Positions 5,299 to 63,347 of a stretch of DNA of 64,000 bases are shown here, one piece after another; position 1 is the first letter of the stretch, and every line of letters begins with the position of its first letter. Both the position numbers and the translations under genes were made by a program. This stretch comes from an uncultured Patescibacteria group bacterium (GTDB lineage: Bacteria; Patescibacteriota; Minisyncoccia; Phycocordibacterales; UBA918), in contig CAKUWT010000002.1 in the NCBI GenBank assembly GCA_934699595.1, positions 37,065 through 101,064 on the forward strand, in the 5' to 3' direction. The notes beneath the pieces were generated by a model. It made no database searches, was not told where the DNA came from, and saw only the letters and a list, made by a program, of their open reading frames with translations.

Positions 5299-6240
5299 AT
5301 GTTAAAATGGATTGACATGGACTGGCAAACTTCATTGAAAGATTTTCAACAATATTTAGAAATTGAACGTGGTCGTAGTCAGGCGACGACTGAAAATTAT
5401 TTACGCTACTTGCGTAAGTATTTCCAGTTTGCCAAAATCAGTTCCCCGAGTGAGATTACTGAAGTTAGTGTTCGGGAGTGGCGGCTGCACTTAAACCGCT
5501 TACCAGGAACTAAAGTGGGTGGTCGTCAGGAACCGATGAAAAGACGAACTCAAAATTATTACTTGATAGCACTAAGAGCCTATTTAAAATTTTTACGAAT
5601 GCGCAATGTAGAGAGTTTGGCGCCAGAAAAAATCGAACTAGCCAAAGTGGCCTCGAGACAAATTGACATCATTACCGCTGCTGAGTTAGAGAGATTGTTG
5701 TTAGCTCCAGATCCGGCCACCCCGCAAGGCTTGCGTGATCGTGCTGTGCTACAGCTCCTCTTCTCGACGGGGCTTCGGGTATCTGAGTTGTGCTCTCTTA
5801 ACATTGACGATATTGATATGGAACGTGACGAGTTCTCGATTCGAGGTAAGGGAGAAAGGGTGCGGGTGGTGTTTTTGTCGGAGACTGCTAAGCGTATGAT
5901 TCGTGATTGGTTAGCGACGAGGGAAGATATTGAGGAGGCTCTTTTTATACAACTAGGAAAACGTAGCGCGGCCGATGGTAGTCGCCGGCTGCAGCCACGG
6001 GCAGTGCAGCGACTTTTGAAAAAGGCGGCAGTACTGGCTGGTATTACCCGTAAGGTGACACCACACACTATCCGTCACAGTTTCGCTACCGATTTGTTAA
6101 GAAACGGGGCCGACCTGCGAGCAGTTCAAAGCATGCTTGGACATGCTGACATCAGTACTACTCAGGTCTATACGCACGTGACTGATGCCCATTTACGAGA
6201 AGTTCATAAAAAATTTCATCACCGCAAAAATCAGGATTAG
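5299..6240 (+). CDS. Tyrosine site-specific recombinase, XerC/XerD family
   Basis: 313 aa with an N-terminal SAM-like domain and a C-terminal catalytic domain (RHSFAT..LLRNGADLRAVQSMLGHADISTTQVYTHV). Confidence 0.85.
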   Translation: MLKWIDMDWQTSLKDFQQYLEIERGRSQATTENYLRYLRKYFQFAKISSPSEITEVSVREWRLHLNRLPGTKVGGRQEPMKRRTQNYYLIALRAYLKFLRMRNVESLAPEKIELAKVASRQIDIITAAELERLLLAPDPATPQGLRDRAVLQLLFSTGLRVSELCSLNIDDIDMERDEFSIRGKGERVRVVFLSETAKRMIRDWLATREDIEEALFIQLGKRSAADGSRRLQPRAVQRLLKKAAVLAGITRKVTPHTIRHSFATDLLRNGADLRAVQSMLGHADISTTQVYTHVTDAHLREVHKKFHHRKNQD

Positions 6241-6303: not shown

Positions 6304-6633
6304 TTAAAGTTTTTTTTCGAACTCAACCAAGAGAGCCAGCTTCCGTCTCAGTTCTCGTTTTGGATCTTGAGACCGTAGTAACCAAGCATGATTTTGCCAA
6401 GCGTGGCGGTAGCATTCACGGTTATGGAAAAAGAAGGGATGACCCCAGATAAACATCCGGAGGTGTTTCGGAGATTCTTCGCAGATAGCTCCGCGACAGC
6501 CGCAGATGCAAAGACCGTCCCTGTTGGTAAAGTTGAAAACGTGGTCGAGTACCGCAGCTCGATCTTCTCGATGGATAATCTTCCAGTACTGTTGATCTCC
6601 AGTCTGGTCAACCATCATGTTGCTGTAGTCCAT
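6304..6633 (-). CDS. Small Cys/His-rich protein; possible YHS/TRASH-like metal-binding fold; paralog 1
   Basis: 109 aa. It shares R.AVLDHVFNF..R...CICGC...H..M.IWG...FFH...C.R.A...DP..ELRR.LA with 6820..7131. An AGGAGG SD sits 8 nt upstream of the ATG. Confidence 0.45.
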   Translation of the reverse strand: MDYSNMMVDQTGDQQYWKIIHREDRAAVLDHVFNFTNRDGLCICGCRGAICEESPKHLRMFIWGHPFFFHNRECYRHAWQNHAWLLRSQDPKRELRRKLALLVEFEKKL

Positions 6634-6768
6634 TTTCCCCTACCTCCTGATTCTGATTCAGATCTGAAGAGAAGCTTACTGAATGTAGTAATTGGTGTCA
6701 ACTCATTGCCAAGTATCCCGCCCCGACTGTTTTGCTGGTCAGGGTTGTTTACGCTTTGGATTTAAAAA

Positions 6769-22979: not shown

Positions 22980-24077
22980 ATGAATATCATTACTAATCTA
23001 CAGAAACTCGTTGCTTTTCCTACCGAGACGGGGCGGAAGACGGAGACTTTGTCACTGTTTTCCTTTGTGCGGTCGGAGCTGGCAGATTTGCCACTACATT
23101 TTACTGAGCGCGAGTATCAGAATTTTCCTGCCTTACTCATCACTACTCGCGATACTAAGACGCCGAAGATCTGGCTCTACTGTCATGTTGACGTGGTGCC
23201 GGCAACGACCGAGCAATATCAAGCGATTGAACAGAATGGTCGGCTTTATGGCCGGGGAGTCTTTGATATGAAATTTGCTCTGGCATCTTACCTCAGCCTC
23301 TTTCGTGAGTTAGGCGAGAGTCTGACTGATTTTGATTTGGGAATCATGCTGGTCAGTGATGAGGAGGTGGGCGGCTTTAACGGAGCTAATCGGTTACAGC
23401 AAGAAGGTTTTTTGTCGAAGGTAATTATTATCCCGGACGGTGGCGATGATTTGCGCGTAGAAACCAAAGCTAAAGGCATATGGCATTTAACCATTCGAGC
23501 GGAGGGTAGGGGTGCGCATGGTTCGCGTCCGTGGGAGGGGGAGAACGCGATTGAGCAGCTGAGTGATTATTTGACCGCTTTACGTCAAGCAGTGTGTCAT
23601 CAAGATAAAACTGAAAAGTGGTGTCGTACTCTCAGTACAGGCATGATCACGGGTGGACAAGCGGTCAACCAGGTACCAGATTATGCTGAGGCAAAGATTG
23701 ATATCCGACTTATTTCTAATGAGGAGAAAACGGAAATTGAGCACATCTTTACCAGTTTGCAGGCAGAGTATCCGCGGGTGACGGTGGAGACTGATATGTT
23801 GGGGAGTTGTGTAAATACCGACATTAATAATCACTATTACCAATCATTCGTGGAAATTACAGAAAGTATTACTGGAGTGGAGCACGTGCCTGTTTGTAGC
23901 TATGGCGCTAGCGATGCCCGGTTTTTTGTATCTGATATGCCCGCGATTATCACTAGACCGACTGGTGGCGGTATGCATGGAGCGGAGGAGTGGCTCGATT
24001 TGGCTAGCTTTGCCAAATTCCATCAGATCATCATGGCGTTTGTACAGCAGAACGGACAGATTGATGTTGGTGATTAG
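22980..24077 (+). CDS. M20-family metallopeptidase (ArgE/DapE-like deacylase)
   Basis: 365 aa with LYCHVDVVPA, GRGVFDMK and SDEEVGG motifs. Confidence 0.8.
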   Translation: MNIITNLQKLVAFPTETGRKTETLSLFSFVRSELADLPLHFTEREYQNFPALLITTRDTKTPKIWLYCHVDVVPATTEQYQAIEQNGRLYGRGVFDMKFALASYLSLFRELGESLTDFDLGIMLVSDEEVGGFNGANRLQQEGFLSKVIIIPDGGDDLRVETKAKGIWHLTIRAEGRGAHGSRPWEGENAIEQLSDYLTALRQAVCHQDKTEKWCRTLSTGMITGGQAVNQVPDYAEAKIDIRLISNEEKTEIEHIFTSLQAEYPRVTVETDMLGSCVNTDINNHYYQSFVEITESITGVEHVPVCSYGASDARFFVSDMPAIITRPTGGGMHGAEEWLDLASFAKFHQIIMAFVQQNGQIDVGD

Positions 24078-24095
24078 TTGGATGGGGAATAGAAA

Positions 24096-24130
24096 GCGAG
24101 GGCCGGCAAAGCCGGCCCTCGCTTTTTTAC
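24096..24130. terminator. Bidirectional rho-independent terminator between convergent genes
   Basis: GCGAGGGCCGGC-AAA-GCCGGCCCTCGC followed by TTTTTT. Confidence 0.65.
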
Positions 24131-24156
24131 CAGTCAGCTTGATACTGACTAGGGTT

Positions 24157-24429
24157 TTATTTCAATGAATCTTTGAGAGTTTTTGAGGCGCGGAATTTTG
24201 GCACTCGCATAGCGGCCACCTTAACGGTCTCACCAGTACGTGGATTACGAGCTTCTCTGGCAGCTCGCATTTTGGCTTCGAAGATACCAAAACCTGCTAC
24301 CGATACCTGGTCACCAGCTTTCATAGCTCCCTCAATACTAGAGAAGACAGTATCGACAGCACGCTCAGCATCAGCCTTGGTGCCACCAAGAACCTCATGT
24401 ACTTTATTGATGATATCAACTTTGTTCAT
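24157..24429 (-). CDS. hup: DNA-binding protein HU
   Basis: 90 aa; MNKVDIINKV...GFGIFEAKMRAAREARNPRTGETV is HU-typical. Confidence 0.9.
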   Translation of the reverse strand: MNKVDIINKVHEVLGGTKADAERAVDTVFSSIEGAMKAGDQVSVAGFGIFEAKMRAAREARNPRTGETVKVAAMRVPKFRASKTLKDSLK

Positions 24430-24643
24430 ATGTCAGTATTTAATTTAAGTGTGGTTAAACTTCCGCGTTAGAATTTTTCCGACGCCGCCGCTTACTGCGG
24501 ACTTGCCAGTATTATATAGCAACATATATGACGTGCAAGCTATTTACACTTTAAGTATCTGTGTTTTGCTGTTTAGGAGCGACAGTAGCCGCTGGTTGGA
24601 GATGGTGGTAAGATAAAAAATATTTTAATTTTTATCATAAATT

Positions 24644-25261
24644 ATGTCAGAAACTGTAGGAATAAAAGTGGGGGTGATGGGAGCGACCGGAAGCTTCTCC
24701 GAGCAGGCGGGAGAGCGCTATCTACGCGACAACGATTTGCAGGGAGAAATTTTACCGCTCGTTAGTGCTGAAGCGGTTTTGAGTGCTCTCACAAAGGGAG
24801 AAATTGATCGGGCGGTTTTTCCCATTGAGAATAGCAATGGTGGCATTGTGCTGGAGGCAGTGCACGCCATGTCTAAATATAACTTTGAGATTGAAGCTAT
24901 GTTTGAGCTGGACGTGCATCATATGTTGTTAGTAAGGCCCGGAGTGACTGCCGCTACTATTGATACTATTTGCTCACACGACCAAGCACTGCGACAATGC
25001 CGGATGTACTTGAAACGGGCGTGGGGTGAGGCTGAGGTTAAACCGTACAGCGATACTGCCGCCGCTGCTGCAGCGTTAGCGATAGGTGAGCTACCGGTCA
25101 CTACGGCTGTCATCGCTCCCAAACGGGCGGCGACGCAGTACGGCTTAGAAATTCTCGAAGCATCCATTCAGGATTTGAAATACAACTACACTACTTTTAT
25201 CGTGGCTAAGCAGCGAACGGTGACAGGTGAACGCGAGTTATCAACAGCTGGAGTAAAATGA
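24644..25261 (+). CDS. Prephenate dehydratase catalytic (PDT) domain protein without an ACT domain
   Basis: 205 aa with GATGSFSEQA...FPIENSNGG matching the PDT domain. No regulatory ACT domain follows. Confidence 0.7.
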   Translation: MSETVGIKVGVMGATGSFSEQAGERYLRDNDLQGEILPLVSAEAVLSALTKGEIDRAVFPIENSNGGIVLEAVHAMSKYNFEIEAMFELDVHHMLLVRPGVTAATIDTICSHDQALRQCRMYLKRAWGEAEVKPYSDTAAAAAALAIGELPVTTAVIAPKRAATQYGLEILEASIQDLKYNYTTFIVAKQRTVTGERELSTAGVK

Positions 25262-25385
25262 GATTCTCGATAATCAAAGTTGGTTATAATTAAAGCACCC
25301 GCGAGGGCTCATGAGATTAAGGTACACAGCTGTTACCTGAATCAAACTGATAACAAACCTTATCAATAAAAATTTAAGAATCAAT

Positions 25386-25832
25386 ATGATGAAATTAATG
25401 AAAGAACGTGGTTTCACCCTCATCGAACTCTTGGTGGTGATTGCCATTATTGGTATTCTCGCCGCTGTAGTCTTAGCTTCACTTAACGATGCACGTAAGT
25501 CTGGTAATGATGCTGCTCTAAAACAATCGATGGCGTCACTAAGATCACAGGCGGAGATTTTCTATAATGAAAATAGTTTTTCTTACAGCGGTTTCTGTGC
25601 CACCTTGGCTACCGGTCAGCCAAACGCAGCTCTAGCTGCCTCAATTCAGAACAATAGTAACGGGGCAGGTGCTCCTGTGTGTGTGCAAAATACCAGTGGC
25701 ACAGGTTGGGCAACCACAGCTATTATATCTTCAGGTAGAAAGTGGTGTGTAGATAGTACTGGAGTGGCTAGGGATATTGCTGCTGCGGCTACAACCCCTA
25801 CAAATGCGGACCCTACTTGTCCAGCTTCTTAA
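25386..25832 (+). CDS. Type IV major pilin, copy 1
   Basis: 148 aa with the prepilin leader MMKLMKERG followed by FTLIELLVVIAIIGILAAVVL, and C-terminal Cys pairs. Confidence 0.85.
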   Translation: MMKLMKERGFTLIELLVVIAIIGILAAVVLASLNDARKSGNDAALKQSMASLRSQAEIFYNENSFSYSGFCATLATGQPNAALAASIQNNSNGAGAPVCVQNTSGTGWATTAIISSGRKWCVDSTGVARDIAAAATTPTNADPTCPAS

Positions 25833-25854
25833 TTTAGTATAAAAACCAAATAAT

Positions 25855-25884
25855 AAAACAAGACCCGTATCCGGGTCTTGTTTT
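25855..25884 (+). terminator. Rho-independent terminator after pilin 1
   Basis: AAAACAAGACCCG-TAT-CCGGGTCTTGTTTT. Confidence 0.65.
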
Positions 25885-26053
25885 ATTATGATTAACTGTC
25901 CCAGTTATATATACCTAGGAGTTATGCACAGACAAAAATAATTACCATACTGGATATAGAGGTTTCTTGTATACTTAAAAAAGATTAAGGTATACAGCTG
26001 TTACCTGAATCAAACTGATAACAAACCTTATCAATAAAAATTTAAGAATCAAT

Positions 26054-26494
26054 ATGATGAAATTAATGAAAGAACGTGGTTTCACCCTCATCGAACTCTT
26101 GGTGGTGATCGCTATTATCGGTATTCTCGCCGCTGTAGTCTTAGCTTCACTTAATGACGCCCGTAAGTCTGGTAATGATGCCGCTTTGAAACAGTCGATG
26201 GCGTCGGTGCGGTCGCAAGCAGAAATTCATTATAATGAAAATGGCTTTTCTTATGCCACTTTCTGTGACAGTGGTACATTGGCTTCTGCCAATGCAGCCT
26301 TGCGTGATTCTATTAGGAATAATAGCAGCGACAACACTAATCCCGTTTGTACTTCGAGTGCAGATGCCTGGGCGGCCTCAGCTAGGATTTCTGACAATCC
26401 CGGTACTACCGCTCGCTATTGGTGTGTAGATAGTACGGGTGCGGCCAGAGAGGGGACGACTGCTCTAGGATCTAGCGCGACAGTTTGTCCGTAG
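26054..26494 (+). CDS. Type IV major pilin, copy 2
   Basis: 146 aa. The first roughly 60 codons and 71 nt of upstream sequence are near-identical at the nucleotide level to copy 1. The C-terminus is divergent. Confidence 0.85.
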   Translation: MMKLMKERGFTLIELLVVIAIIGILAAVVLASLNDARKSGNDAALKQSMASVRSQAEIHYNENGFSYATFCDSGTLASANAALRDSIRNNSSDNTNPVCTSSADAWAASARISDNPGTTARYWCVDSTGAAREGTTALGSSATVCP

Positions 26495-26510
26495 ACCGCT
26501 AGTCTTGAGG

Positions 26511-26549
26511 AAAACAAAAACCGCCATCTTTGATGGCGGTTTTTGTTTT
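26511..26549 (+). terminator. Rho-independent terminator after pilin 2
   Basis: AAAACAAAAACCGCCATC-TTTG-ATGGCGGTTTTTGTTTT. Confidence 0.65.
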
Positions 26550-26575
26550 CCTAAGTATGTTATTATTTGAGGACA

Positions 26576-27043
26576 ATGAGATTGTGCCAATTACAGCTAG
26601 GTAAACAGCGGGGTTTCACCCTCATCGAACTCTTGGTGGTGATTGCAATTATCGGTATTCTGGCTGCCGTAGTTTTAGCTTCATTAAATAGTGCCCGCAA
26701 ACAAGGGAATGATGCTGCTCTAAAACAATCGATGGCGTCACTAAGATCACAGGCGGAGATTTATTACCTAAGAAGTAATTTTACTTACGACGGTTTCTGC
26801 GACACGTTAACCTCCGGAAAAGTTAATGCGCACTTAGGAGATTCGATTAAGAAAAACAGCAACAACAACACTGCTCCAGTTTGTAATGATGAGGATCAGG
26901 TTTGGGCTGCCTCGGCACAGATATCTCCACAGGGTGTAGTGAGCCGCTATTGGTGTGTAGACAGCACGGGAGTCGCCAAGGAGCAGGCTTCTGCTTTGGC
27001 TGGCATGGCTGGCGCACCCGCGGTCGACACCCAGTGTTTGTAA
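26576..27043 (+). CDS. Type IV major pilin, copy 3 (longer leader peptide)
   Basis: The ATG at 26576 gives MRLCQLQLGKQRG|FTLIELLVVIAIIGILAAVVL. The track's TTG at 26567 is an alternative start. The C-terminal half is divergent. Confidence 0.8.
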   Translation: MRLCQLQLGKQRGFTLIELLVVIAIIGILAAVVLASLNSARKQGNDAALKQSMASLRSQAEIYYLRSNFTYDGFCDTLTSGKVNAHLGDSIKKNSNNNTAPVCNDEDQVWAASAQISPQGVVSRYWCVDSTGVAKEQASALAGMAGAPAVDTQCL

Positions 27044-27045
27044 GC

Positions 27046-27387
27046 CCGGCTTCTTCGGTGCGCTCACAGGCGGAGATTCATTATTTAAAAAATGGTTTCA
27101 CTTACACTAGTTTTTGTAACTCTTTTAACTCCGGCCAAGCAAATTTTCCCTTAGGGCAATCAATTAAGAAAAATAGTTATGCCAATGAAGGAATCGCTTG
27201 TATGGATAGAAATTCTAGCTGGGCTGTTGTTGCTCCGGTGTTACGAGAGGGGGGCGAAGTGAAGGCGTGGTGCGTAGACAGCACTGGCTGGGCGGGGATG
27301 CTGCAGGTTTCAGATAGTTTATATTACTATAATGCCAATATCTTAAAGCCAGACTCATGCCACTCCTTTACTCTTGTTGCCAGTTAG
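27046..27387 (+). pseudogene. 5'-truncated pilin copy lacking start codon, leader and N-terminal helix; a silent-cassette candidate
   Basis: Reading-frame homology begins at ...SVRSQAEIHYLKNGFTY..FC...GQSIKKNS...WCVDSTG, matching the pilin C-terminal domains (compare copy 2 ASVRSQAEIHYNENGFSY and copy 3 GDSIKKNS). It directly abuts the pilin 3 stop and is only read through from an out-of-frame overlap, 26902.. in the track. Confidence 0.6.
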
Positions 27388-27462
27388 GTGGTGTTATCGG
27401 TACCGATTTTGCGGTAATGCTAAGTTGCTTTTTCTTGATAACTAAGTAAACTAACCACTGTT

Positions 27463-28608
27463 ATGACGCATACACACGAACACAATTTAGATTATAAAAA
27501 ACTATTTACCGTTACTCCTAAAGAGGACTCAACTGTGGAAATTGTCGGAGAGTTACCCTACGAAGCTCTGTTAGAAGAGCGACCAGCCGCTATTAAACAG
27601 TTGGGTAAGCAGTTAAAAGTAGACGGTTTTCGCAAGGGGCACCTTCCGGAAGCTGTGATTATTAGTAAAGTCGGTGAGATGGCTATCTTGACCGAAATGG
27701 CGGAGCGTGCTGTGGCGCATCACTACGGACATATAGTAGAAGCGTTTGAGTTGGCTGCCCTCGGACGTCCGCAGATTGCACTTACCAAAATTGCCCCTGA
27801 GAACCCGCTTGGTTTTACCGCTACAACGGCAGTTTTCCCTGATTTTACTCTACCGAACTACAAGGAAATCGCACACGTGGCTAATCTAAAGAAGGTTACC
27901 GCGGTGGTGGAGGAGGCTGATGTTGATAAACAGATTAGTGATATTCTACGACAAAAGGTCGCATACGAACGTTTGCAAAAAAAAGCAGTTGCTAAATCTG
28001 CAAAAGATAAGTCAGAAGAAACAGCTAATAATAATAAGAACGAAGATGTGATTGAATCCCAGGAAGACTTGGATAAGTTACCTCTTCCCGAACTGACTGA
28101 TGAGTTGGTTAAAACGCTGGGACAACCGGGACAGTTTACTGATGTGACTGATTTTAAAGCTAAGATTAAAGAGCATCTGCAAATTGAAAAAGAACGTGAA
28201 GCAACAGCCAAGAACCGCACCAATGTTACCGAGGCAGTGATGGCGGAGACGAAATTGGTGGTGCCTCGAGTACTCCTAGATGCAGAACTTTCGCAAATGT
28301 GGGCAGAGATGCAAGACAATTTGTCACAAGCCAATCTACAGATGGGTGACTATTTAAAACATATTAAAAAAACTGAGACTGAGCTCAAGAAAGAATGGGA
28401 GGGCGACGCTAAAAAACGGGTGGAGTTGCAGTTGATTTTGAGCGCGATCGCGAAAGAAGAACAGCCAGAACTTGATCAGGAAGCTGTCACGGGTGAAGTG
28501 GAGGCAATTCTCAAGCAATACCCGGGAGCTGATGAAGAGCGAGTAAGGTCTTACGTTACTAATATGATGACCAATGAGGCGGTGATGAAAATGCTAACCG
28601 AGGCCTAG
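27463..28608 (+). CDS. tig: Trigger factor-like chaperone lacking the PPIase (FKBP) domain
   Basis: 381 aa with the ribosome-binding signature VDGFRKGHLP (E. coli IDGFRKGKVP) and N- and C-terminal domains alignable to TF. The FKBP region is replaced by a K/E/N-rich linker. Confidence 0.65.
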   Translation: MTHTHEHNLDYKKLFTVTPKEDSTVEIVGELPYEALLEERPAAIKQLGKQLKVDGFRKGHLPEAVIISKVGEMAILTEMAERAVAHHYGHIVEAFELAALGRPQIALTKIAPENPLGFTATTAVFPDFTLPNYKEIAHVANLKKVTAVVEEADVDKQISDILRQKVAYERLQKKAVAKSAKDKSEETANNNKNEDVIESQEDLDKLPLPELTDELVKTLGQPGQFTDVTDFKAKIKEHLQIEKEREATAKNRTNVTEAVMAETKLVVPRVLLDAELSQMWAEMQDNLSQANLQMGDYLKHIKKTETELKKEWEGDAKKRVELQLILSAIAKEEQPELDQEAVTGEVEAILKQYPGADEERVRSYVTNMMTNEAVMKMLTEA

Positions 28609-28656
28609 AGTCGTTCCTGACAGTTCGTATTTTTGTGGTATGCACAGGATTAACCT

Positions 28657-29232
28657 GTGCAGGAGGTAACAAGTAGACCGATAAAGGTTATACTAGTGGG
28701 GATGTTGATATGCTATCGAAGTTTGGCAGCGTTTTTAGTAGGGAGCAGCTTATGGCTGTGGCCCCTAGCTATTTTGGCTGAGGAGACGGTAATGGCAACG
28801 ACAACAGCTGAGGAAACGGTCGCTACCAGCACACCCTCTTTGATGGGAGCTTTGTCCTCGGTGGGGCAAACTCGATTACAGGTTTTATTTAATGCTCAAA
28901 ATCGCCGCCTGAGTTTGGCAGTACAACGTTTAGAAAATATTACCAAGCGTTTAGAGACGCATATTCCAGAAGATTTGGAAGAAGTTGAGAGTTATGAGCA
29001 ATTATCCTCTGAGACTAAAGCGGAACTAGCTATTTGGATGGCTAAAGAAACTTTGACCACGGCTAAGACAGCTCTTGGTCAGGCTGAAGGTCGTAACGCT
29101 ACCGTCCTTTTGAGTCCAGATCCAGAATTTGTTTGGCAGCAACTAAAAACTGAGTATTTGGCAGTTGAGCATGCTTTGAAAGCGACTCAAAATGCTCTTG
29201 AGCTAGCTTTGTATAATTTAATTATTAAATAA
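28657..29232 (+). CDS. Hypothetical protein with an N-terminal hydrophobic segment
   Basis: 191-aa ORF with no recognisable motif; the start codon is uncertain. Confidence 0.3.
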   Translation: MQEVTSRPIKVILVGMLICYRSLAAFLVGSSLWLWPLAILAEETVMATTTAEETVATSTPSLMGALSSVGQTRLQVLFNAQNRRLSLAVQRLENITKRLETHIPEDLEEVESYEQLSSETKAELAIWMAKETLTTAKTALGQAEGRNATVLLSPDPEFVWQQLKTEYLAVEHALKATQNALELALYNLIIK

Positions 29233-29234
29233 CC

Positions 29235-29732
29235 ATGCCTGATCCGACCAAAACACAGCCTGATTTTTCTCGAGAAGAGATGATTATGCCTAAAGACGAT
29301 AGTGGAATACGACTAGTTCCTGCGGCCAAGGTGAGTAAATCAGTTAGCAAGGTTTTTGTGGTGACAGCGCTTGGTCTATTGTTGGTAACAGCGCTAATCA
29401 TCCTGGGCGCACTGTTTCTACCCAAGGTTGATTGGCGGCAATGGCTTGCGGGGTCGTCGGCAGATTTTGTTGTTGAAGAAAAAGTGCCTCCATTTATGGT
29501 CAAAACAGAAGCACCTGAAAAAAATCAGGATTTGGAAGATTTGATGAAATATAGTGAATCAACAGATTTGGAAGCAATCGCTACCGATTTGGCCGCAACT
29601 GATTTTAGAAATATTTTACTGGAGGTGAACCAGATCGAGCGTGAGATCAAGGCTGATCTAGCTACTAGCGCTAGCAGTAGCGACCCTGCTCTCCATGTTG
29701 GTGATGAGGATGAAGCGGAAGAAGAGAGATAG
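29235..29732 (+). CDS. Hypothetical single-pass membrane protein with an acidic C-terminus
   Basis: 165 aa with TM VFVVTALGLLLVTALIILGALFL and a D/E-rich tail. Confidence 0.35.
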   Translation: MPDPTKTQPDFSREEMIMPKDDSGIRLVPAAKVSKSVSKVFVVTALGLLLVTALIILGALFLPKVDWRQWLAGSSADFVVEEKVPPFMVKTEAPEKNQDLEDLMKYSESTDLEAIATDLAATDFRNILLEVNQIEREIKADLATSASSSDPALHVGDEDEAEEER

Positions 29733-32067: not shown

Positions 32068-33822
32068 ATGGACATTAAGGATAAGCAACTAAAAGAATTT
32101 ATTCTCGACTCTGGGTTGATTACTAAGGGGGAACTGGTCGAGGCTGAGAAAGTGGCGGCTGAGGAAGGGCGGACTTTGGCGGAGGCTTTGGTAACTAGTG
32201 GGCAGATTACCGAGGACGATATGCGTCGGGTGAATTCTTATATCACTGGTATCCCCTACATCTCTCTGAAAGATTTACAGAACATTGATTTTGAAGTGCT
32301 ATCTCTTATTCCAGAACCAGTCGCCCGTACTCATAATATCGTCGCATACAAAAGAACCGATCGTGAGCTTGAGGTGGCCATGCTGGACGTGGCTGATTTG
32401 GCAGCGATTGATTTTGTTAAGAAGAAAGTGGGTTTAAAAATCCTTCCTAGGCTGACAGACAGCGAATCAATGCGTCGGGCTTTACAGCGCTATCAGAAAA
32501 CTCTTAAGGATGAGTTTGGCGACTTTATTGCTGAGGATGCCAAAGCTTTAAAAACTATTAAAACAGAAGATGGTAGCGAAGTATCAGAGACTGATTTAAA
32601 AAAGATGGCCGAGGATTTGCCAGTGGTGCGGATCGTAGACACGCTTTTGCGGCACGCGGTTATTCAGAATGCTTCCGATGTGCACATTGAGCCGATGGAA
32701 GAGGAGGTTTTGGTCCGGTACCGGATTGACGGTATTTTGAGTGATGCCATGAAGCTGCCCAAAAGTGCGGCTGATATGATTGTGGCGAGAATCAAAGTGT
32801 TGTCTAATTTGAAGCTTGACCAAAAACGTCTTCCGCAAGACGGGCGGTTTAAGATTGAGATGGATGGGCAGAAAGTCTCTCTCCGTGTTTCAGTGTTACC
32901 AATTTATTTTGGAGAAAAGGTGGTGATGCGCTTGTTGCGGGAGAATCGCTCGGGGTATTCCTTGGAGGGTATCGGTTTTCATGGTCAGTCTTTGGAAAGA
33001 ATTCATCGGGCTATGCGCACCACGACAGGAATTATCCTTATTACCGGACCGACCGGATCTGGTAAGTCCACCACTTTATATACTATTTTGGATTTACTCA
33101 ATACTCCGGAGGTAAATATTTCTACGATTGAAGACCCAATTGAGTACCAGATGCCGCGGATTAACCAGACTCAGGTGAAGCCAGACATTGGTTTTACTTT
33201 TGCCAACGGTTTGCGTACGCTCATGCGACAAGATCCGGACATCATTATGGTGGGTGAGATCCGCGATCAAGAGACAGCTAGCTTGGCGATCAACGCTGCT
33301 CTCACAGGTCACTTAGTTTTAGCCACAGTACACACTAACTCCGCCGCTGGGACAGTAGCCCGCTTGACCGATATGGGCGTGGAGCCGTTTCTCTTGGTCT
33401 CTACTTTGCGAGTGGCGGTGGGACAACGTCTGGTGCGTAAGCTCACTGATGATAAAATTCCTTATATACTTAGCAAAGCCGAACGAGAAGAGTTGGCGCG
33501 ACATGCCAATATGGATTTGGTCTTGGCAGCCTTGAAGGAAGAAGGGGTGGTCAAAGGTAGTGCTACCTGGAATGATGTGGAGTTTTATCACCCCAAGGAA
33601 AACGGACTAACAGCCGATGGTTACCAAGGGCGGATGGGTATTCATGAGGTGTTTGAGGTGTCTGCGGCTATTAAAGAGTTGGTGATTGGACACAGGACAG
33701 GTGATGAGATTGAGGCTGAGGCCAGAAAAACTGGTATGCTCACGATGATGGAGGACGGTATTTTTAAAGCTGCCCGCGGACTTACGACTGTAGAAGAGGT
33801 CTTACGTGTAATTAATGAATAA
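32068..33822 (+). CDS. pilB: Type IV pilus assembly ATPase PilB (GspE family)
   Basis: 584 aa with N-terminal GSPII domains and Walker A GPTGSGKSTTLY. Confidence 0.9.
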   Translation: MDIKDKQLKEFILDSGLITKGELVEAEKVAAEEGRTLAEALVTSGQITEDDMRRVNSYITGIPYISLKDLQNIDFEVLSLIPEPVARTHNIVAYKRTDRELEVAMLDVADLAAIDFVKKKVGLKILPRLTDSESMRRALQRYQKTLKDEFGDFIAEDAKALKTIKTEDGSEVSETDLKKMAEDLPVVRIVDTLLRHAVIQNASDVHIEPMEEEVLVRYRIDGILSDAMKLPKSAADMIVARIKVLSNLKLDQKRLPQDGRFKIEMDGQKVSLRVSVLPIYFGEKVVMRLLRENRSGYSLEGIGFHGQSLERIHRAMRTTTGIILITGPTGSGKSTTLYTILDLLNTPEVNISTIEDPIEYQMPRINQTQVKPDIGFTFANGLRTLMRQDPDIIMVGEIRDQETASLAINAALTGHLVLATVHTNSAAGTVARLTDMGVEPFLLVSTLRVAVGQRLVRKLTDDKIPYILSKAEREELARHANMDLVLAALKEEGVVKGSATWNDVEFYHPKENGLTADGYQGRMGIHEVFEVSAAIKELVIGHRTGDEIEAEARKTGMLTMMEDGIFKAARGLTTVEEVLRVINE

Positions 33823-33830: not shown

Positions 33831-35060
33831 ATGAAAAAGTTTACCTACGAAGGCGAAGACGCAAGTGGTAAAAGAATCAAGGAGACTATTACTGCCAAAG
33901 ATCGTTACGCGGTATACGATATTGCTCGTGCCGAGGGACATCGAGTGACGGCTGTTAGCGAGTACAAGAATTTTTCTCTAGAGTCGCTAATTAATGTTGA
34001 GAAAATTAATCAAAAGCTCAGTCGTGTCAAACAGGATGAGTTAGTAATGATGACTCGGAACCTTGGTTCAATGTTGACAGCTGGTTTGACGGTAACCAGG
34101 GCGTTGTCAGTTATCGAAAGGCAAAGTAGTAACCCTAAACTAAAGGGGGTGATTAACCAGGTAGTAGAAGATGTTAACAAAGGAGGTCAGTTTTATGATG
34201 CTCTGAAAAAGTCTCCTAAAATTTTTGATAATTTATATGTAGCCATGGTGCGGGCGGGAGAAGAGAGTGGTAACTTAGCGGAATCGCTCAAAACCCTATC
34301 TTTGCAAATGGAGCGTTCTAGTAATCTAAAGAAAAAAATCAAGGGAGCCATGATTTATCCCTCGATCGTAATTGCGGTGATGGTGGTTATTGGTATTCTG
34401 ATGATGATCTTTGTGATGCCGGCTATCACTGGTATCTTCAAAGATATGGGTAACGAACTACCTGGGACGACCAAAGTTTTAATTGCAACCAGCGACTTTT
34501 TGGTAGCTAATACTATTTTGTCGTTAGTGACATTAGTTGGGGTGATTGTCGGCTTTATCTATTTCTTAGGTACTAAAATCGGCAAGCACTTCACTTCATG
34601 GCTGGTGGTACGGTTGCCAGTTATTGGTACCATGGCCAAAGAGACCAATGCAGCTCGAACGGCTCGAACACTATCGTCCTTATTAAATTCTGGGGTTGAT
34701 GTGTTGCAGTCTTTAGAGATTACTGAGGAAGTGGTACAGAATATTTACTACAAGCGGATTTTGCACGAAGCCGGTGAGAGGGTGGAAAAGGGTACTCCTC
34801 TCTCGACGACCTTTATTGCTCACAACCAACTTTACCCTATTCTGGTGGGAGAAATGATTCTGGTGGGAGAGGAAACTGGACAAATCGCCGGTATGTTGGG
34901 TGAGCTGGCAATTTTTTATGAGAACGAAGTAGAGAGAAAAACTAAAGATCTCTCCACCATTGTGGAACCATTATTAATGGTTGTAATCGGCGCCTCGGTT
35001 GGTTTCTTTGCCTTGGCTCTGATTGCGCCAATTTATTCTATTTCCGATGGCTTGTCTTAG
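33831..35060 (+). CDS. pilC: Type IV pilus inner-membrane platform protein PilC (GspF family)
   Basis: 409 aa with duplicated GspF domains and TM helices. Confidence 0.9.
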   Translation: MKKFTYEGEDASGKRIKETITAKDRYAVYDIARAEGHRVTAVSEYKNFSLESLINVEKINQKLSRVKQDELVMMTRNLGSMLTAGLTVTRALSVIERQSSNPKLKGVINQVVEDVNKGGQFYDALKKSPKIFDNLYVAMVRAGEESGNLAESLKTLSLQMERSSNLKKKIKGAMIYPSIVIAVMVVIGILMMIFVMPAITGIFKDMGNELPGTTKVLIATSDFLVANTILSLVTLVGVIVGFIYFLGTKIGKHFTSWLVVRLPVIGTMAKETNAARTARTLSSLLNSGVDVLQSLEITEEVVQNIYYKRILHEAGERVEKGTPLSTTFIAHNQLYPILVGEMILVGEETGQIAGMLGELAIFYENEVERKTKDLSTIVEPLLMVVIGASVGFFALALIAPIYSISDGLS

Positions 35061-36771
35061 AAACAAACTTACCGGACGCGGCTTCTCATTGGTGGAGACA
35101 CTGGTGGTCTCGGCATTGATACTGGTGGTTTTTAGCGGTTTGATTTTAGGCTTCAAGTATTCTCTCGAGTTAATTCTGACTAGTCGGGCCCGGTTATCGG
35201 CGCTATCTGTAGCTACAGATCGGATGGAGTACATTCGCTCGCTATCGTATGATGACGCTGGCACAGTGGGAGGGATCCCAGCCGGGTCTATCCCACAAAC
35301 TCAAGTTATCAGCCTGAACGGTATTGATTTTACTGAGCGAATACTGATTGAATATCAGGACGACCCGGCTGATGATCTGGCCCCAACCGATTTAATCCCC
35401 ACCGATTATAAAGCGATACAAATCAGTTACGAGTGGACGGTAAATGGTAAGACCTACTCCACCTCACTGAGCAGCAATATCGTTCCCCGGTCTCTTGAGA
35501 CTAGCGCGGGCGGTGGATCCATTAGGGTGCGGGTTTATGATGCGGGAGCCAACCCGATAGCCGGGGCGGAGGTGAGACTAGTCAATAATTACGCCACCAC
35601 AACCGTCGACACTGTCAGAACTACCAACAGCAATGGGGAGGCTTTGTTTTTGGGAGCAGCGGCCGGTTCAGAGTATGAATTATCTGTGACCAAAGCCGGG
35701 TACTCCACAGATGGTACTTATCGGGCTGATGCCAAAGTGGTCACCCCTTACTCCGCTCCCTTTCCGGTGCTGGAAGGAGATGTGGTGGCGCTTAACTACT
35801 TTATAGATAAATTAAGCGATTTACACGTCGCTACTTATAGCAGTATTACTGACGCTAGTGTGGCTGTCGATATGAATGATAGCAGTCAGGTAGTAGCTAG
35901 TGATCAGGTAGTATTAAATGGCGGGCAGTGGCAATTGGCAGAGATTTCTCCCGGAGTTTTTGCAGACAGTGGACAAATTATGTACCAATTGCCGACCCCT
36001 GCACCACTAGCCGCTTGGCAGAACTTGACGCTTAGTAAGAACTTAATTCCCGGGACAAACCTACGTTACCGAATTTACCAAGGATACGCCTCTCCCGTAC
36101 TGGTCCCAGATACTGACTTACCCGGTAATAGTTTAGGATATGTAAGCGACGCCATTGATATTTCTGGACTTAATCCCGTCACTTATAACGAGCTGGTTTT
36201 GGGAGTTGATTTTGAAACTAGTGACTCAACAATCACCCCACAACTGTTGGGTGTAAAAAATAATTACTGGTCTGAGGCCACAGTTTTGCCTAATGTCAGC
36301 TTTGCTCTTGATAGTATGAAAATTATCGGACAAGATGGTGACGGAGCGGATGTCAGTAAGAATAGCTATGCGATGAATACGGCGGGTAATGGCAAGGCAC
36401 TATTAAGTGATATTGAGTGGGACTCGTATAATTTCGTCAATGCTGGTTACGATGTGATCAGTGCCTGTACCGGCGATCCGGTATCGGTAGCGCCTGGCAC
36501 CGAAGATAATCTGACATTAGTCCTCCAGCCCAAAATACCTAATAGTTTAAGAGTGGTGGTAAAAAATAATGAGCAGCAACCAATAGCTGGAGTGGCGGTT
36601 TCTTTGTCAGGTAGTGGGGTGACTAAAAATTTGGAGAGTGATTTTTGTGGACAGGCTTTCTTCCCCGGCCTGACCAAGGACGGTAACTACACGGTGACGG
36701 TTGATTATGAGGGGGTAACCCAGACCGTGGATGTGATTGGGGGACAGACAGCGGCGACGGTAATCTTTTAG
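35047..36771 (+). CDS. Large pseudopilin / minor pilin-like protein with a prepilin-type N-terminus and beta-rich C-terminal domains
   Basis: The ATG at 35047 overlaps the pilC stop. The leader MACLRNKLTGRG|FSLVETLVVSALILVV matches the prepilin cleavage/methylation motif. About 575 aa. Confidence 0.7.
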   Translation: MACLRNKLTGRGFSLVETLVVSALILVVFSGLILGFKYSLELILTSRARLSALSVATDRMEYIRSLSYDDAGTVGGIPAGSIPQTQVISLNGIDFTERILIEYQDDPADDLAPTDLIPTDYKAIQISYEWTVNGKTYSTSLSSNIVPRSLETSAGGGSIRVRVYDAGANPIAGAEVRLVNNYATTTVDTVRTTNSNGEALFLGAAAGSEYELSVTKAGYSTDGTYRADAKVVTPYSAPFPVLEGDVVALNYFIDKLSDLHVATYSSITDASVAVDMNDSSQVVASDQVVLNGGQWQLAEISPGVFADSGQIMYQLPTPAPLAAWQNLTLSKNLIPGTNLRYRIYQGYASPVLVPDTDLPGNSLGYVSDAIDISGLNPVTYNELVLGVDFETSDSTITPQLLGVKNNYWSEATVLPNVSFALDSMKIIGQDGDGADVSKNSYAMNTAGNGKALLSDIEWDSYNFVNAGYDVISACTGDPVSVAPGTEDNLTLVLQPKIPNSLRVVVKNNEQQPIAGVAVSLSGSGVTKNLESDFCGQAFFPGLTKDGNYTVTVDYEGVTQTVDVIGGQTAATVIF

Positions 36772-36785
36772 CAGCTGGTATAACT

Positions 36786-37397
36786 ATGAATAAACTATAC
36801 TTACAAAAGGGTTTTACGTTAGCTGAAGTGGTCGTGGTGGCGACGATCAATACCGTGCTGATGCTGGCGGTGTCGCTAACTGTTATGTATATTTATCAAC
36901 AAAACAGCTACACCTTCTCACAGAGTCAAGAAATCGATCATGCTCGTCGGGGATTGTTAACTTGGGAACAAGACGCCCGGTCCATGAGTACTGGAGCGGA
37001 CGGTTCTTACGCGGTAGAAAAGGCTCAGTCTAGTAGTTTTGAATTTTATACAAATATTGACCACGACAAAGATATTGAATTTGTCCGGTATGTCGTGGAC
37101 GACCATACTTTATACCGGTACATATATAAAGCTACTGGTTTACCGGTGAAGTACGAGCGAGCGACACCCACTTCAATAGAAATCTTATCAGAGTATGTGC
37201 AAAATATAGACTTAGGGGTACCTCTGTTTACTTACTACGGTGGCAACGGGGCAGAGTTGTTGTCTCCTGAGGCGATGATCACTGATATTAGGTATGTGGA
37301 TATGGAGATTGTTATCAATGTTGACCCCCTCCGTTCGCCAGACGGCTACACCCTTAAGGGGAGTGTTACACCCCGGAACCTTAAAGATAACTTATAA
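36786..37397 (+). CDS. Minor pilin / pseudopilin
   Basis: 203 aa with MNKLYLQKG|FTLAEVVVVATI, a prepilin-type N-terminus. Confidence 0.7.
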   Translation: MNKLYLQKGFTLAEVVVVATINTVLMLAVSLTVMYIYQQNSYTFSQSQEIDHARRGLLTWEQDARSMSTGADGSYAVEKAQSSSFEFYTNIDHDKDIEFVRYVVDDHTLYRYIYKATGLPVKYERATPTSIEILSEYVQNIDLGVPLFTYYGGNGAELLSPEAMITDIRYVDMEIVINVDPLRSPDGYTLKGSVTPRNLKDNL

Positions 37398-38834
37398 TTG
37401 CTTAGTATGAACGTCTCACTAAAAAATAATTTGCAAAGTGGTTACTTGCTGGTATTGGTGCTGGTCTTTGGAGCCATCTTCCTGACTATTCTGATGGGCT
37501 TTATTAGTTTTATTTATTCTCAGAGTCGGGTGGTCACTCAACGAGTGCAGTTAGAACAGGCGGGGAATATTGCCGAGGCTGGCCTCAATTATTACCGCTG
37601 GTTTTTGGCGCATTATCCTGATGATGTTACTAATGGCACCGGTGCTCCGGGGCCGTACGTTGAGGTCTATACCGATCCGGCTGGTAACGCTATTGGTGAG
37701 TACTCTTTGGATATTGAAAGTACTGAGTTTTGTGGAGATGTCTCAACCATCACCGTGCACTCAACGGGATATACTTACGAAAACCCGAGCGTGAAGCGTA
37801 CCATTAGTGCTAGTTACCGGCGCCCAACAGTGGCGGACTATTCTTTTATTATCAACCAAAATGTCTGGGCGGGTGATTCTCGGGTGATCACCGGCCCTTA
37901 TCACAGCAATGGCGGTATTCGCATGGACGGGCAGAATAATTCTCAGGTGACTAGTATGCTGGGAACCTGGACTTGTACCGACAGTTTCGGCTGCAGCCCA
38001 GCCACTACCAAGCCGGGAGTTTTTAGTACCGAGAGCCATTCCCGTCCAGAGTTATTTTCTTATCCGGTACCACAAATCAACTTTGGTAATTTTAAATATG
38101 ATTTGTTGAGTATGAAAGAGAAGGCGATCAATAATGGCGGGCTTTTTCTTCCAGCTTCAAATAAAGAGGGTTACGAAATCACTATCAATGGTGACGATAT
38201 TGAAGTCTACCGGGTTGTCAAAACCCACAGCTATTACGGTCTGAGTGTTAATGACTTAAAAAACTATCAGCTGGAGGACAATGTGATTAAGAACAAGAAC
38301 GTGGTGCCGAATAAGGACTTTGATCCCAGCTGTCCAATTATTTTTGTCGAAGACCGAGTCTGGCTGAAAGGTAATTTGAATGACCGAGTGACCCTGATCG
38401 CCAGTAACCAAAGTGATACCAGTAAAAAACCGTCGATTATTCTGCAGGGCAACATCACTTACAACAACCCTGATGCCGGTTTGCTGGCTCTCGCGGAATC
38501 CAATGTGTTGATTGGGGTGAATGTACCTAATAATCTGTACCTGAACGGGATCTTTATTGCTAAGGAGGGGTACTACGGGCGTAACCACTACACCGCTTCA
38601 CACTTAAGCTCTATCGGTATGTCCGCTTACGTTTTCCGTAATTCTGAGAACCTTAACGGAACCGTGGTTTCTAACGGCCAGGTGGGGACGCAGTGGACGA
38701 GTTCGGGAGTGCCAGTTTCAGGTTTCTACAATCGTTACAACACCTTCGACCGTAACTTGGCGGAGAACCCGCCAGCTCTCACCCCCCGGATTTCTGAAGT
38801 CTACCAGTTTCTGGATTGGCGGGACGCGCGGTAG
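37398..38834 (+). CDS. PilX-like minor pilin / pilus-associated protein
   Basis: 478 aa. The N-terminal TM plus QLEQAGNIAEAGLNYYRW resembles the PilX N-terminal domain. Confidence 0.55.
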   Translation: MLSMNVSLKNNLQSGYLLVLVLVFGAIFLTILMGFISFIYSQSRVVTQRVQLEQAGNIAEAGLNYYRWFLAHYPDDVTNGTGAPGPYVEVYTDPAGNAIGEYSLDIESTEFCGDVSTITVHSTGYTYENPSVKRTISASYRRPTVADYSFIINQNVWAGDSRVITGPYHSNGGIRMDGQNNSQVTSMLGTWTCTDSFGCSPATTKPGVFSTESHSRPELFSYPVPQINFGNFKYDLLSMKEKAINNGGLFLPASNKEGYEITINGDDIEVYRVVKTHSYYGLSVNDLKNYQLEDNVIKNKNVVPNKDFDPSCPIIFVEDRVWLKGNLNDRVTLIASNQSDTSKKPSIILQGNITYNNPDAGLLALAESNVLIGVNVPNNLYLNGIFIAKEGYYGRNHYTASHLSSIGMSAYVFRNSENLNGTVVSNGQVGTQWTSSGVPVSGFYNRYNTFDRNLAENPPALTPRISEVYQFLDWRDAR

Positions 38835-39649: not shown

Positions 39650-40770
39650 GATTACTAACCGATATCCCGGCTGCAGAACTGAAAGACCGTTACGTATTTT
39701 TACGTGGCTCGTTGAATGTGCCGGTGCGGGATGGGGTAGTGCTGGATGATTTTCGCTTGCAGCAATTATTGCCCACTATCAAGTATTTACAGGAGCGAGA
39801 GGCACGGATTATTTTAGCGGGACACATTGGTCGAGAAGCAAACGAAACCTTGCAACCAGTACAATTGGCTTTGGCGGAGCTGGGGATAGAAACTATCTGG
39901 GGTGGGCGAGTGGGAGAGGGAAGTTTTGCTACAGCGCGAGCTGATTTATTGTCAGGGCAAGTGCTGTTGTTAGAAAACCTGCGCCAAGATCCGCGGGAAG
40001 TGGTTAATGATTCTGGATTTGTTAGTGAGTTGGCAGCGACAGCCGATTTGTACATTAATGACGCTTTTGCCGATTCGCATCGAGAACACGCTTCTATTTT
40101 TGGTCTGCCACAGCGCCTACCGAGTTATGCGGGTTTAGGATTGGCGAAGGAAGTGACTGAGTTGTCTAAGGCCCTTAATCCAATCCGACCGTCTTTGCTG
40201 ATTTTAGGCGGAGCCAAGTTTGATACCAAGATCCCCCTGTTGGAAAAATTGCTACCAGTTTATGATTGTGTCTTTATTGGCGGCGCTTTACTAAATGACG
40301 TATTGTTGGCGACGGGTTATGAGGTCGGGCGGTCGTTGGTGTCTGAGGTGTCGTTAGTCGGACGTTCGTGGCTGAAAGATTCTAAAATTGTTCCGGTGAT
40401 AGATGTGGTGGTGCGTAGCGGAGAGCAGGAGCGAGTGTGTCTGATTAGTGAAGTGCAGCCAGCAGAAATGATTGTCGATATGGGACCAGAAACAGTCGCC
40501 AGTTTGCGAGGGCCGATTAGCGAGGCGAAAACTATTTTATGGAACGGTCCGCTAGGATTGTATGAATCCGGGGCTAAAGGCAGTACTCACGCAGTGGTGG
40601 AGCTAGCGGCGGCGAGCAAGGCTTTTTCAGTGGTGGGCGGAGGAGACACAATAGCAGCGATTGCCGACTTGGCGGTAGAGGAAAAGCTCGGTTTTGTTTC
40701 TACTGGAGGTGGAGCAATGCTGACTTTCTTGGAGCAGGGCACTTTGCCGGGGATTAGGGTGTTGGGGTAG
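39646..40770 (+). CDS. pgk: Phosphoglycerate kinase
   Basis: 374 aa with the PGK hinge/binding motifs; it overlaps the tpiA stop by 4 nt. Confidence 0.9.
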   Translation: MRLLTDIPAAELKDRYVFLRGSLNVPVRDGVVLDDFRLQQLLPTIKYLQEREARIILAGHIGREANETLQPVQLALAELGIETIWGGRVGEGSFATARADLLSGQVLLLENLRQDPREVVNDSGFVSELAATADLYINDAFADSHREHASIFGLPQRLPSYAGLGLAKEVTELSKALNPIRPSLLILGGAKFDTKIPLLEKLLPVYDCVFIGGALLNDVLLATGYEVGRSLVSEVSLVGRSWLKDSKIVPVIDVVVRSGEQERVCLISEVQPAEMIVDMGPETVASLRGPISEAKTILWNGPLGLYESGAKGSTHAVVELAAASKAFSVVGGGDTIAAIADLAVEEKLGFVSTGGGAMLTFLEQGTLPGIRVLG

Positions 40771-62504: not shown

Positions 62505-63347
62505 TTGCGTATGACCGTCTCATCTTTCTTCAAAAGCACCGCCCTCCTCGGAATGGTTGCCTTTGGCCTATTAGCCTACAACTTTATCCAAGCTTCTTGG
62601 ACAGCGCCTACAGCGACTCCTCCTGGGGGCAACACTGATAGACCGATTAACGTTGGTAGTATTTATCAAGCTAAGTCTGGTGACCTTGGTGCTATCCGCA
62701 TGCGGGCAGGACAGTATTGTAATGCGGCGGGGACGAAGTGTGTGACTGCCGACGGATTAATTGGTGGTGGCTCAGGGCAGGCAATGGCGATTGGCCGAGT
62801 GGCGATGACTGTTAATGCGGCGGGGAACCTAACTGTTGGTACGGTAACTTTTGATAAACCTTTTGATAAGGTGCCAAAAGTAGTGGCGTCAGTGCAAGAC
62901 GCTTATTACAATGGACCTTGTCGGGGTGACGAAATTATTTTCCGAGTTAATGTCCGTAGTGTATCCAGAACCGGATTTGTAGTAGAGGCCCCGTATGCTA
63001 CTGGTGGTTGTGGAACACGGAGAGTGGTCGGAGCGAGTTGGATAGCTTTGGCAGATGGTGGCGCCAACACCCTTGTGCGCACTTTTAGTGAAAATCAGAT
63101 GAAAAATGCTGTTAAAAAAGAGAATCCATCGGTAGCAACTGCTGACGCCGTACATGACACTCCGGGAAACCGCGCGGCTCTTTGTGAGTCACTATTTCCT
63201 GGCAGTAGCCCTACCAGAGCCACGACAGGATCATTCACTTCCCCTAGTAACAACACAGTTTACACTTTATCGGGCTTTACAGTTTGGACACGGGCGGGTG
63301 CTAGTGGACGTAATGTGACTTTGACTAGTTTGGAGTGTACCAGGTAG
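62505..63347 (+). CDS. Secreted or anchored H-type-lectin-like protein; paralog 2 with a C-terminal extension
   Basis: 280 aa. The 5' about 235 nt and the 13-nt upstream motif agtgtgacataat are identical to paralog 1. A lectin-like core (VTFDKPFDKVPKVVASV...VSRTGFVVE...SWIALADGG) is followed by an extra roughly 90 aa. Confidence 0.5.
   Translation: MRMTVSSFFKSTALLGMVAFGLLAYNFIQASWTAPTATPPGGNTDRPINVGSIYQAKSGDLGAIRMRAGQYCNAAGTKCVTADGLIGGGSGQAMAIGRVAMTVNAAGNLTVGTVTFDKPFDKVPKVVASVQDAYYNGPCRGDEIIFRVNVRSVSRTGFVVEAPYATGGCGTRRVVGASWIALADGGANTLVRTFSENQMKNAVKKENPSVATADAVHDTPGNRAALCESLFPGSSPTRATTGSFTSPSNNTVYTLSGFTVWTRAGASGRNVTLTSLECTR

Follow-up and report, generated by a model that had tools for sequence, protein, structure and literature searches.

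Adjacent paralogs of major-pilin genes are found without variation systems in Streptococcus sanguinis (pilE1/pilE2) and Thermus (PilA4/PilA5), and in the Moraxella Piv and shufflon systems alternative pilin C-terminal segments are inverted, for which a nearby invertase is needed. Orphan 3' cassettes of a displaced type are known from cdiA and rhs loci, and the orphan cassettes of tpsA/tpsC loci belong to the same type. Exchange with the tpsA/tpsC cassettes is rare (PMC3848433). The best-described pilin variation system, pilE/pilS of Neisseria, depends on a set of silent copies and on a guanine quadruplex (G4) 5' of pilE, and is enhanced by the Sma/Cla 3' repeat (PMC4023411). In class II meningococci the pilS cassettes are non-donors and the pilE locus has neither G4 nor Sma/Cla (PMC4023411); truncated pilS copies alone therefore do not imply donor activity. 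Here we describe a pilin locus in a stretch of 64,000 nucleotides (nt; hereafter the window) of contig CAKUWT010000002.1, from an uncultured Patescibacteria group bacterium, in which three complete type IV major-pilin-like genes, pil1, pil2 and pil3, are followed by a 5'-truncated pilin sequence, frag4. A preliminary description of the window had likened this locus to pilE/pilS. The reading that we favor, at a probability of roughly 0.6, is that of a tandem array shaped by duplication, divergence of the head domains and short-patch gene conversion, in which a fourth paralog would have lost its 5' end by deletion and is probably carried untranslated on the pil3 transcript.

The three tandem genes of the preliminary description were confirmed. 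They lie on the + strand at 25386-25832 (pil1, 148 amino acids [aa]), 26054-26494 (pil2, 146 aa) and 26576-27043 (pil3, 155 aa), and each is an open reading frame (ORF) with a public gene call and a match to the Pfam family N_methyl (PF07963; E 1.3e-9, 1.2e-9 and 2.5e-10, respectively). The start ATG used for pil3 is the choice of the public gene call. The prepilin site of all three reads ...RG/FTLIELLVVIAIIGILAAVVLA, with the canonical G/FTLIELL motif, and on these motifs we take pil1-3 to be bona fide prepilins. Directly after pil3 stands frag4 (27046-27387, + strand), a head-domain sequence of 113 codons that ends in a TAG stop (27385-27387) and matches pil3 by tblastn with an E value of 5.6e-23. 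Its homology to the pilins sets in at about 27049-27058, which is 6-15 nt past the pil3 stop codon (27041-27043), and its frame is -1 relative to that of pil3; it reads ASSVRSQAEIHY... and then continues through a full pilin head. As had been described, frag4 has no start codon, leader peptide or N-terminal part of the α1 helix, and it gave no Pfam N_methyl match. No in-frame ATG occurs in frag4 before 27202, no ribosome-binding (Shine-Dalgarno) site precedes its only GTG (27058), and public gene callers left the region uncalled. In the loss of the start codon, the promoter and the essential N-terminal segment, frag4 shows one of the features by which a pseudogene or gene remnant is recognized.

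Comparison of pil1 and pil2 revealed a repeat of 289 nt with 89% identity (25314-25602 versus 25982-26270; blastn E 1.6e-107). Each copy of the repeat begins with a 72-nt leader or promoter-proximal region on the + strand, located 5' of pil1 (25314-25385) and 5' of pil2 (25982-26053), and the two copies of this region differ at one position; the shared upstream sequence that had been noted is thus present, but it is not identical over the approximately 71 nt that were claimed. The longest exact run between the two genes is 116 nt (25326-25441 = 25994-26109). Within the coding sequence, near-identity had been proposed for about 175 nt, and we found it for the first 123 nt (95%), after which identity fell to 70% over the next 54 nt and was 80% over the next 40 nt. 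The statement that pil1 and pil2 then diverge completely did not hold, as the heads of pil1-3 are still 49-54% identical in protein and a 20-nt WCVDSTG-coding block is common to all four copies (25743, 26420, 26951 and 27268). Also borne out was the helix-coding block of pil3, which is 83% identical to that of pil1 across 208 nt. The leader peptide and 5' flank of pil3 are unlike those of pil1 and pil2.

The 72-nt leaders gave no match in Rfam and their fold is weak (z -2.2). TATAAT- or TATACT-like hexamers lie about 25-30 nt further 5' of the leaders, which may represent a conserved long 5' untranslated region (UTR). Both of the first two genes are followed on the + strand by a predicted intrinsic terminator hairpin, found as an inverted repeat: an 18-bp perfect stem after pil1 (25850-25889; -25.3 kcal/mol, z -7.5) and a 21-bp perfect stem after pil2 (26508-26552; -35.1 kcal/mol, z -10). 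These hairpins have A-runs and T-runs on both sides, which would permit bidirectional termination. No terminator-like site was found after pil3 in 27043-27387.

Direct evidence of exchange between the copies came from a mosaic patch in pil1. A 55-nt tract of this gene (25506-25560, + strand), coding for NDAALKQSMASLRSQAEI, is identical to pil3 26708-26762, while pil2 departs from it at 14 positions, for the most part by synonymous changes. Outside the tract, to either side, pil1 patterns with pil2, and inside it with pil3. When the informative sites of pil1, pil2 and pil3 from the GFT motif to codon column 80 were permuted, the observed run of 14 consecutive sites with pil1 = pil3 was reached in 0 of 100,000 permutations (p<1e-5). 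The presence of this pil3-identical patch inside an otherwise pil2-like pil1 indicates that the paralogs have exchanged DNA, and by its pattern we regard the tract as a classical case of short-patch gene conversion, with two complete genes as partners. The patch sits in the conserved block in which the homology of frag4 begins. For pilin gene conversion in the Candidate Phyla Radiation (CPR), nothing was found in the searchable literature.

The relationships among the heads point to a common origin within this lineage. An exhaustive phmmer search of 1.84 billion representatives returned the neighboring pil3 as the best match of frag4 (49% identity, E 2e-16) and nothing closer, and in the curated family set the nearest relatives of the frag4 head are pil3, pil2 and pil1, in that order. 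The pil3 head is itself closest to the heads of pil2 and pil1. Since frag4 is nearest to its window neighbors, it would be an in-genome paralog rather than a recent import, and the four heads appear to form a lineage-specific paralog group that arose by tandem duplication.

Along the array, the WCVDSTG blocks are spaced 677, 531 and 317 nt apart, by which the last unit falls short by about 215-360 nt. An intergenic region and the first ~55 codons of a pilin gene would together make up this length. We propose that tandem duplication created an array of type IV major-pilin paralogs, that the head domains diverged between the copies, and that the 5' parts (the leader region, signal peptide and α1 helix) were held similar by purifying selection together with occasional short-patch gene conversion. 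The fourth paralog would then have lost the ~215-360 nt that comprised its intergenic region, its promoter and its leader as well as the first ~55 codons, and this deletion would have joined the head-coding part of frag4 to a point a few nt behind the pil3 stop codon. As a result, frag4 would probably be transcribed within the 3' UTR of pil3 and not translated, and presumably it has no selected role. As a by-product, rare recombination through a 15-nt block that pil3 and pil1 share with frag4 could yield an in-frame pilin bearing the frag4 head. We also considered an inversion as the origin of the truncation and rejected it; there is no complementary 5' pilin fragment elsewhere in the window, and the break in synteny lies at the wrong end of frag4.

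To place the locus among its relatives, we scanned Joint Genome Institute (JGI) metagenome contigs with the motifs RSQAEI[YHF]Y and WCVDSTGxA, which gave 80 loci, and all stop-to-stop frames in these loci were then scanned for heads with a hidden Markov model (HMM). The scan revealed 130 head domains, of which 116 had a prepilin N-terminus, 10 were cut by contig ends and four were internal without an N-terminus; three of the last group were fused to unrelated N-terminal regions (L023, L046 and L047) and one belonged to a frameshifted pilin (L063). The preliminary description had proposed that cassette number be compared across related genomes, and this comparison gave it no support: not one of the 130 heads in the 80 loci was a truncated head behind a complete pilin. 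Several survey hits that seemed to have no N-terminal motif proved to be motif variants (AFTIIE, GLTLIE) or to lie at contig edges. A 99-aa protein (P0126) was examined as a second head-only example and rejected, as its start had been mis-called and a full prepilin sequence lies upstream in frame (L099:1-456). The public call of this protein starts at an internal Met, and head-only pilin entries in databases need checking.

Tandem arrays of family pilins, on the other hand, were frequent in the survey. They were present in 34 of the 80 loci (two pilins in 29, three in 3 and four in 2), and exact 5' identity of at least 50 nt was seen in 10 of 54 neighboring pilin pairs. In a 729-kb genome (L015) the exact 5' run is 143 nt (5998-6140 versus 6533-6675), compared with 116 nt in the window. 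Tandem pairs with exact 5' runs and divergent heads were also observed at L094, L032, L077 and other loci (95, 86, 74 nt and so on). Such patterns suggest that concerted evolution or the replacement of heads is widespread in the pilin arrays of CPR bacteria. A near-identical 5' half with a different head is therefore typical of these arrays, and the truncated copy is not. The window array resembles other tandem pilin arrays, including those of Saccharibacteria seen here, in its adjacent genes (two to four in such arrays) with near-identical 5' halves and different heads, and differs from them in its extra 5'-truncated head, which was absent from all surveyed loci. To our knowledge, no such extra head has been reported for a tandem major-pilin array.

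Several observations in the survey concern heads outside ordinary pilins. At L063:2075-2488, directly 5' of a complete pilin, lies a pilin whose N-terminal helix is out of frame ('lnfwwlwllsvfwlr' and then SLNTARTKG...); it may be a frameshifted pseudogene or reflect a sequencing error. Pilin heads, from about ...IKQ..N.RSQAE onwards, form the C-terminus of proteins with unrelated N-termini and no prepilin motif at L023:389-2191, L046:3509-4288 and L047:3680-4240. Further proteins with a pilin head outside ordinary pilins are P0123, P0124, P0125, P0128, P0131 and P0135; among these are large proteins with two to about ten copies of the head, as in P0123 (773 aa, two heads) and P0124 (1502 aa, 10 matched stretches). 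From these architectures, the pilin head has the look of a surface module that is mobile in CPR bacteria.

The state of frag4 itself can be read in two ways. In favor of relaxed constraint, frag4 scored lowest of 113 heads against the family HMM, from which the window's own pilin genes had been left out (62 bits versus a median of 96), and its hydrophobic fraction was the highest (0.31 versus a median of 0.23). Its tail is poor in Gly, Ala, Ser and Thr, with 8 residues after the last Cys versus 0-4 in the family (one exception). We ruled out a frameshifted, more typical C-terminal tail, as there are stops in the other frames. The atypical tail and the low score suggest, and are consistent with, relaxed constraint.

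Other observations weigh against the deleted-paralog reading. The set in which frag4 appeared as the most atypical head was picked by similarity to pil3 and is hence biased. All 113 codons of frag4 are open, with zero stops or frameshifts, and it keeps 14 of the 14 invariant columns of a 24-sequence head alignment (R, Q, A, E, Y, four Cys, W-C-V-D-S and G), so that the four Cys and WCVDSTG that mark this head are invariant with frag4 included. AlphaFold2, given an alignment of 44 sequences, produced a model with a mean predicted local distance difference test (pLDDT) score of 87, in which residues 1-90 score above 89. The modeled fold comprises the C-terminal part of α1, an α-β loop and a four-stranded sheet, and the last 23 residues were poorly predicted; when the model of the isolated head was searched against the PDB with Foldseek, no match was significant. 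So intact a core would mean either a recent truncation or a maintained sequence. Furthermore, it is a neat coincidence that the endpoint of the deletion should fall just a few nt past the pil3 stop, and the searched collections held no orthologous locus by which selection on frag4 might be gauged.

The same features bear on the proposal that frag4 is a functional silent cassette, which would donate its head to pil1-3 in a RecA-dependent manner or be activated by a one-step deletion between 15-nt direct repeats, with a resulting shift in the pilus surface or in host-binding specificity. The locus is like that of Neisseria gonorrhoeae and class I N. meningitidis in that expressed pilin genes stand beside a promoterless copy without the 5' constant region, one that starts inside the conserved block, and in that short conserved blocks flank the variable head and there is evidence of short-patch, non-reciprocal exchange. 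The open frame, intact invariant residues and confident model of frag4 speak for a working cassette, as do the patchy conversion that has taken place between the paralogs and the genes for RecJ and ComEC encoded nearby. In addition, the longest sequence that frag4 shares exactly with any of pil1-3, a 15-nt block (TCACAGGCGGAGATT; + strand) found by exact-match search at 26747-26761 in pil3, at 25545 in pil1 and at 27064 in frag4, is codon-aligned in all three, so that recombination within it would give an in-frame chimera. The junction predicted for such a chimera, with the 5' part of pil3 or pil1 and the head of frag4, is ...ATGGCGTCACTAAGATCACAGGCGGAGATT joined to CATTATTTAAAAAATGGTTTC.

The differences from pilE/pilS, however, are substantial. 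Neisseria has 8-19 silent copies (PMC4023411), whereas tblastn and blastn revealed exactly one promoterless 5'-truncated pilin copy in the window, next to three expressed-looking genes. In place of the G4 motif and the Sma/Cla repeat of Neisseria (PMC4023411), we found no G4 motif in 24000-29000 on either strand (regular expression G3+N1-7 x4; the window's only one is at 39899) and no Sma/Cla-like 3' repeat common to the sequences after the four stops. An initiator other than G4 is conceivable. The homology that flanks the variable head amounts to the exact 15 nt on its 5' side and 20 nt at 85-90% identity on its 3' side, the latter being the WCVDSTG-coding block of frag4 (27268-27287, + strand), its sole 3' homology to pil1-3. 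No frag4-derived tract longer than 15 nt was found in pil1-3, and the sole conversion patch joins two complete genes, in the conserved part and not in the head. No frag4-type head on a pilin N-terminus was found in the public protein sets searched, including none above 49% identity among the 1.84 billion representatives, and the clusters of the window pilins have one member each in a collection of 5.8 billion proteins; variants are not known. In these respects the locus is like class II pilE meningococci, which likewise have truncated cassettes without cis elements and no donor tracts in the expressed gene (PMC4023411); in Neisseria, unlike here, the cassettes stand at a locus of their own as relics of a once functional system, and no functional system is known in this lineage. 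Taken together with the absence of the arrangement from related loci and the non-donor pilS copies of class II strains, these differences make a functional cassette unlikely in our view. The match to pilE/pilS made in the preliminary description thus stands for the architecture and for the exchange of patches between paralogs, and fails for the cis elements and the donor tracts; of a cassette repertoire, the window shows a single copy. A fourth paralog with a 5' deletion accounts for the data no less well than pilE/pilS does, and nothing shows that the truncated copy is a working silent cassette rather than the leftover of a deleted gene.

A second origin, which we hold to be equally unlikely, is that frag4 is the original head of pil3, displaced when a head segment with its own stop was inserted through a homologous 5' crossover and an illegitimate 3' join. 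The topology is that of an orphan cassette: frag4 has the same orientation as pil3, follows directly after its stop and retains a piece of the conserved region. A precedent exists in TpsA/tpsC, where a 5'-truncated variable C-terminal copy likewise lies downstream in the same orientation and keeps a small part of the conserved region, from which recombination could be primed (PMC3848433). The pil1/pil3 patch documents recombination in exactly this conserved block, and DNA-uptake genes (ComEC and the type IV pilus genes) are encoded in the window. Unlike the tpsC, cdiA and rhs cassettes, the frag4 locus concerns a pilus subunit, has one cassette that abuts the stop, and is accompanied by no toxin or immunity gene, the trigger factor gene following 75 nt on. 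Moreover, the pil3 head is nearest to those of pil2 and pil1 and not to a foreign pilin, which gives no sign of import, and there were no other displaced heads in the 80 surveyed loci. On the present data a displaced-head origin is indistinguishable from a simple deletion.

A minimal, G4-independent form of pilin switch may also be envisaged, in which a single untranslated cassette in the pil3 3' UTR is recombined into an expressed pilin or activated by a 317-nt deletion between the 15-nt codon-aligned repeats. We judge this quite improbable. A switch by inversion would be like the Moraxella Piv and shufflon systems in having alternative C-terminal segments and one constant 5' part; frag4, unlike the segments of those systems, is in direct orientation, has no flanking inverted repeats, and the only recombinase found is Xer-like and about 20 kb away.

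Translation of frag4, either as a head-only protein from GTG 27058 or TTG 26902 or as a frameshift fusion to pil3, is very unlikely. Its frame is open back to 26902, and the CPR metagenome proteins with heads on non-pilin N-termini or with at least two heads (L023, L046, L047 and P0123) offer a parallel. Neither candidate start, however, has a ribosome-binding site and there is no signal peptide; the 48 codons upstream, which overlap pil3 in another frame, have a random appearance, inspection of 26902-27043 by eye revealed no slippery heptamer, and gene callers passed the region over. Finally, an assembly artefact at the pil3/frag4 junction, conceivable for a repeated gene family in a metagenome assembly, is extremely improbable: the junction has no repeat that would let an assembler jump, the longest repeat of the locus (116 nt) lies elsewhere, an ENA MEGAHIT contig (ERZ27286916 k141_66386, 75 kb) is identical to the window across 20.4 kb, including the whole locus and the junction, and the window pilins are recorded on three contigs in NCBI and ENA.

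The array lies between genes for prephenate dehydratase (24644-25261) and trigger factor (27463-28608). The best matches of the trigger factor have 46-57% identity and come from Paceibacterota, Minisyncoccia and 'Saccharibacteria'-labeled metagenome-assembled genomes (MAGs), and the GC content of the window is 45.9%; by these matches, the source organism appears to be a Paceibacteria-like CPR/Patescibacteria bacterium. Searches for close relatives through the trigger factor yielded at most 57% identity and no pilins at the syntenic site, exact-protein look-ups of the window proteins returned the source contig only, and an exact 32-mer of the pil1/pil2 leader had no match in JGI metagenomes. 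In 11 related MAGs (L001 and L003-L012) the gene order is pilC-pilB / NusA-PPase-X-Y-tig-ClpP-RNase Y / PDT-HU. In the window (24157-29732) the pilin array stands in place of ClpP-RNase Y, and the order and orientation of tig-X-Y differ. Because the 11 MAGs are only remotely related (about 50% identity in amino acids) and lack pilins at the site, they are uninformative on the history of frag4.

A type IV pilus operon lies 5-18 kb 3' of the array. It includes PilB (T2SSE, E 4.6e-117) at 32068 and PilC (T2SSF) at 33831, followed by a large Ig-like protein and minor pilins at 35023-38834; RecJ is located at 41357 and ComEC at 43585. The large protein (35023-36771, 582 aa) is encoded directly 3' of pilC and overlaps its end. 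It contains CarboxypepD_reg, Big_1 and SpaA-like Ig domains, a pilin-like N-terminus is weakly matched at 35077, and it may be a large tip or minor pilin. An ORF at 62505-63347 that adjoins the ribosomal protein L2 gene encodes an H-type lectin domain (E 1.4e-7) and may bind carbohydrate at the surface.

Nearly all CPR bacteria have type IV pili, and in cultivated Saccharibacteria these pili mediate attachment to the host (PMC11623550, PMC9894109), so that diversification of pilins bears on host range. If frag4-derived chimeras were to appear in sequencing reads, frag4 would become the first cassette of the pilS kind outside Neisseria-type systems in a lineage with reduced genomes, and a minimal switch, if real, would alter the pilus surface that a CPR episymbiont uses for host attachment or DNA uptake. 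As it stands, the locus does not amount to evidence of a programmed system of high-frequency variation. What it does record is modular recombination on an evolutionary scale, in a group in which tandem pilin paralogs with long exact 5' identity and divergent heads are common and the copies exchange short patches.

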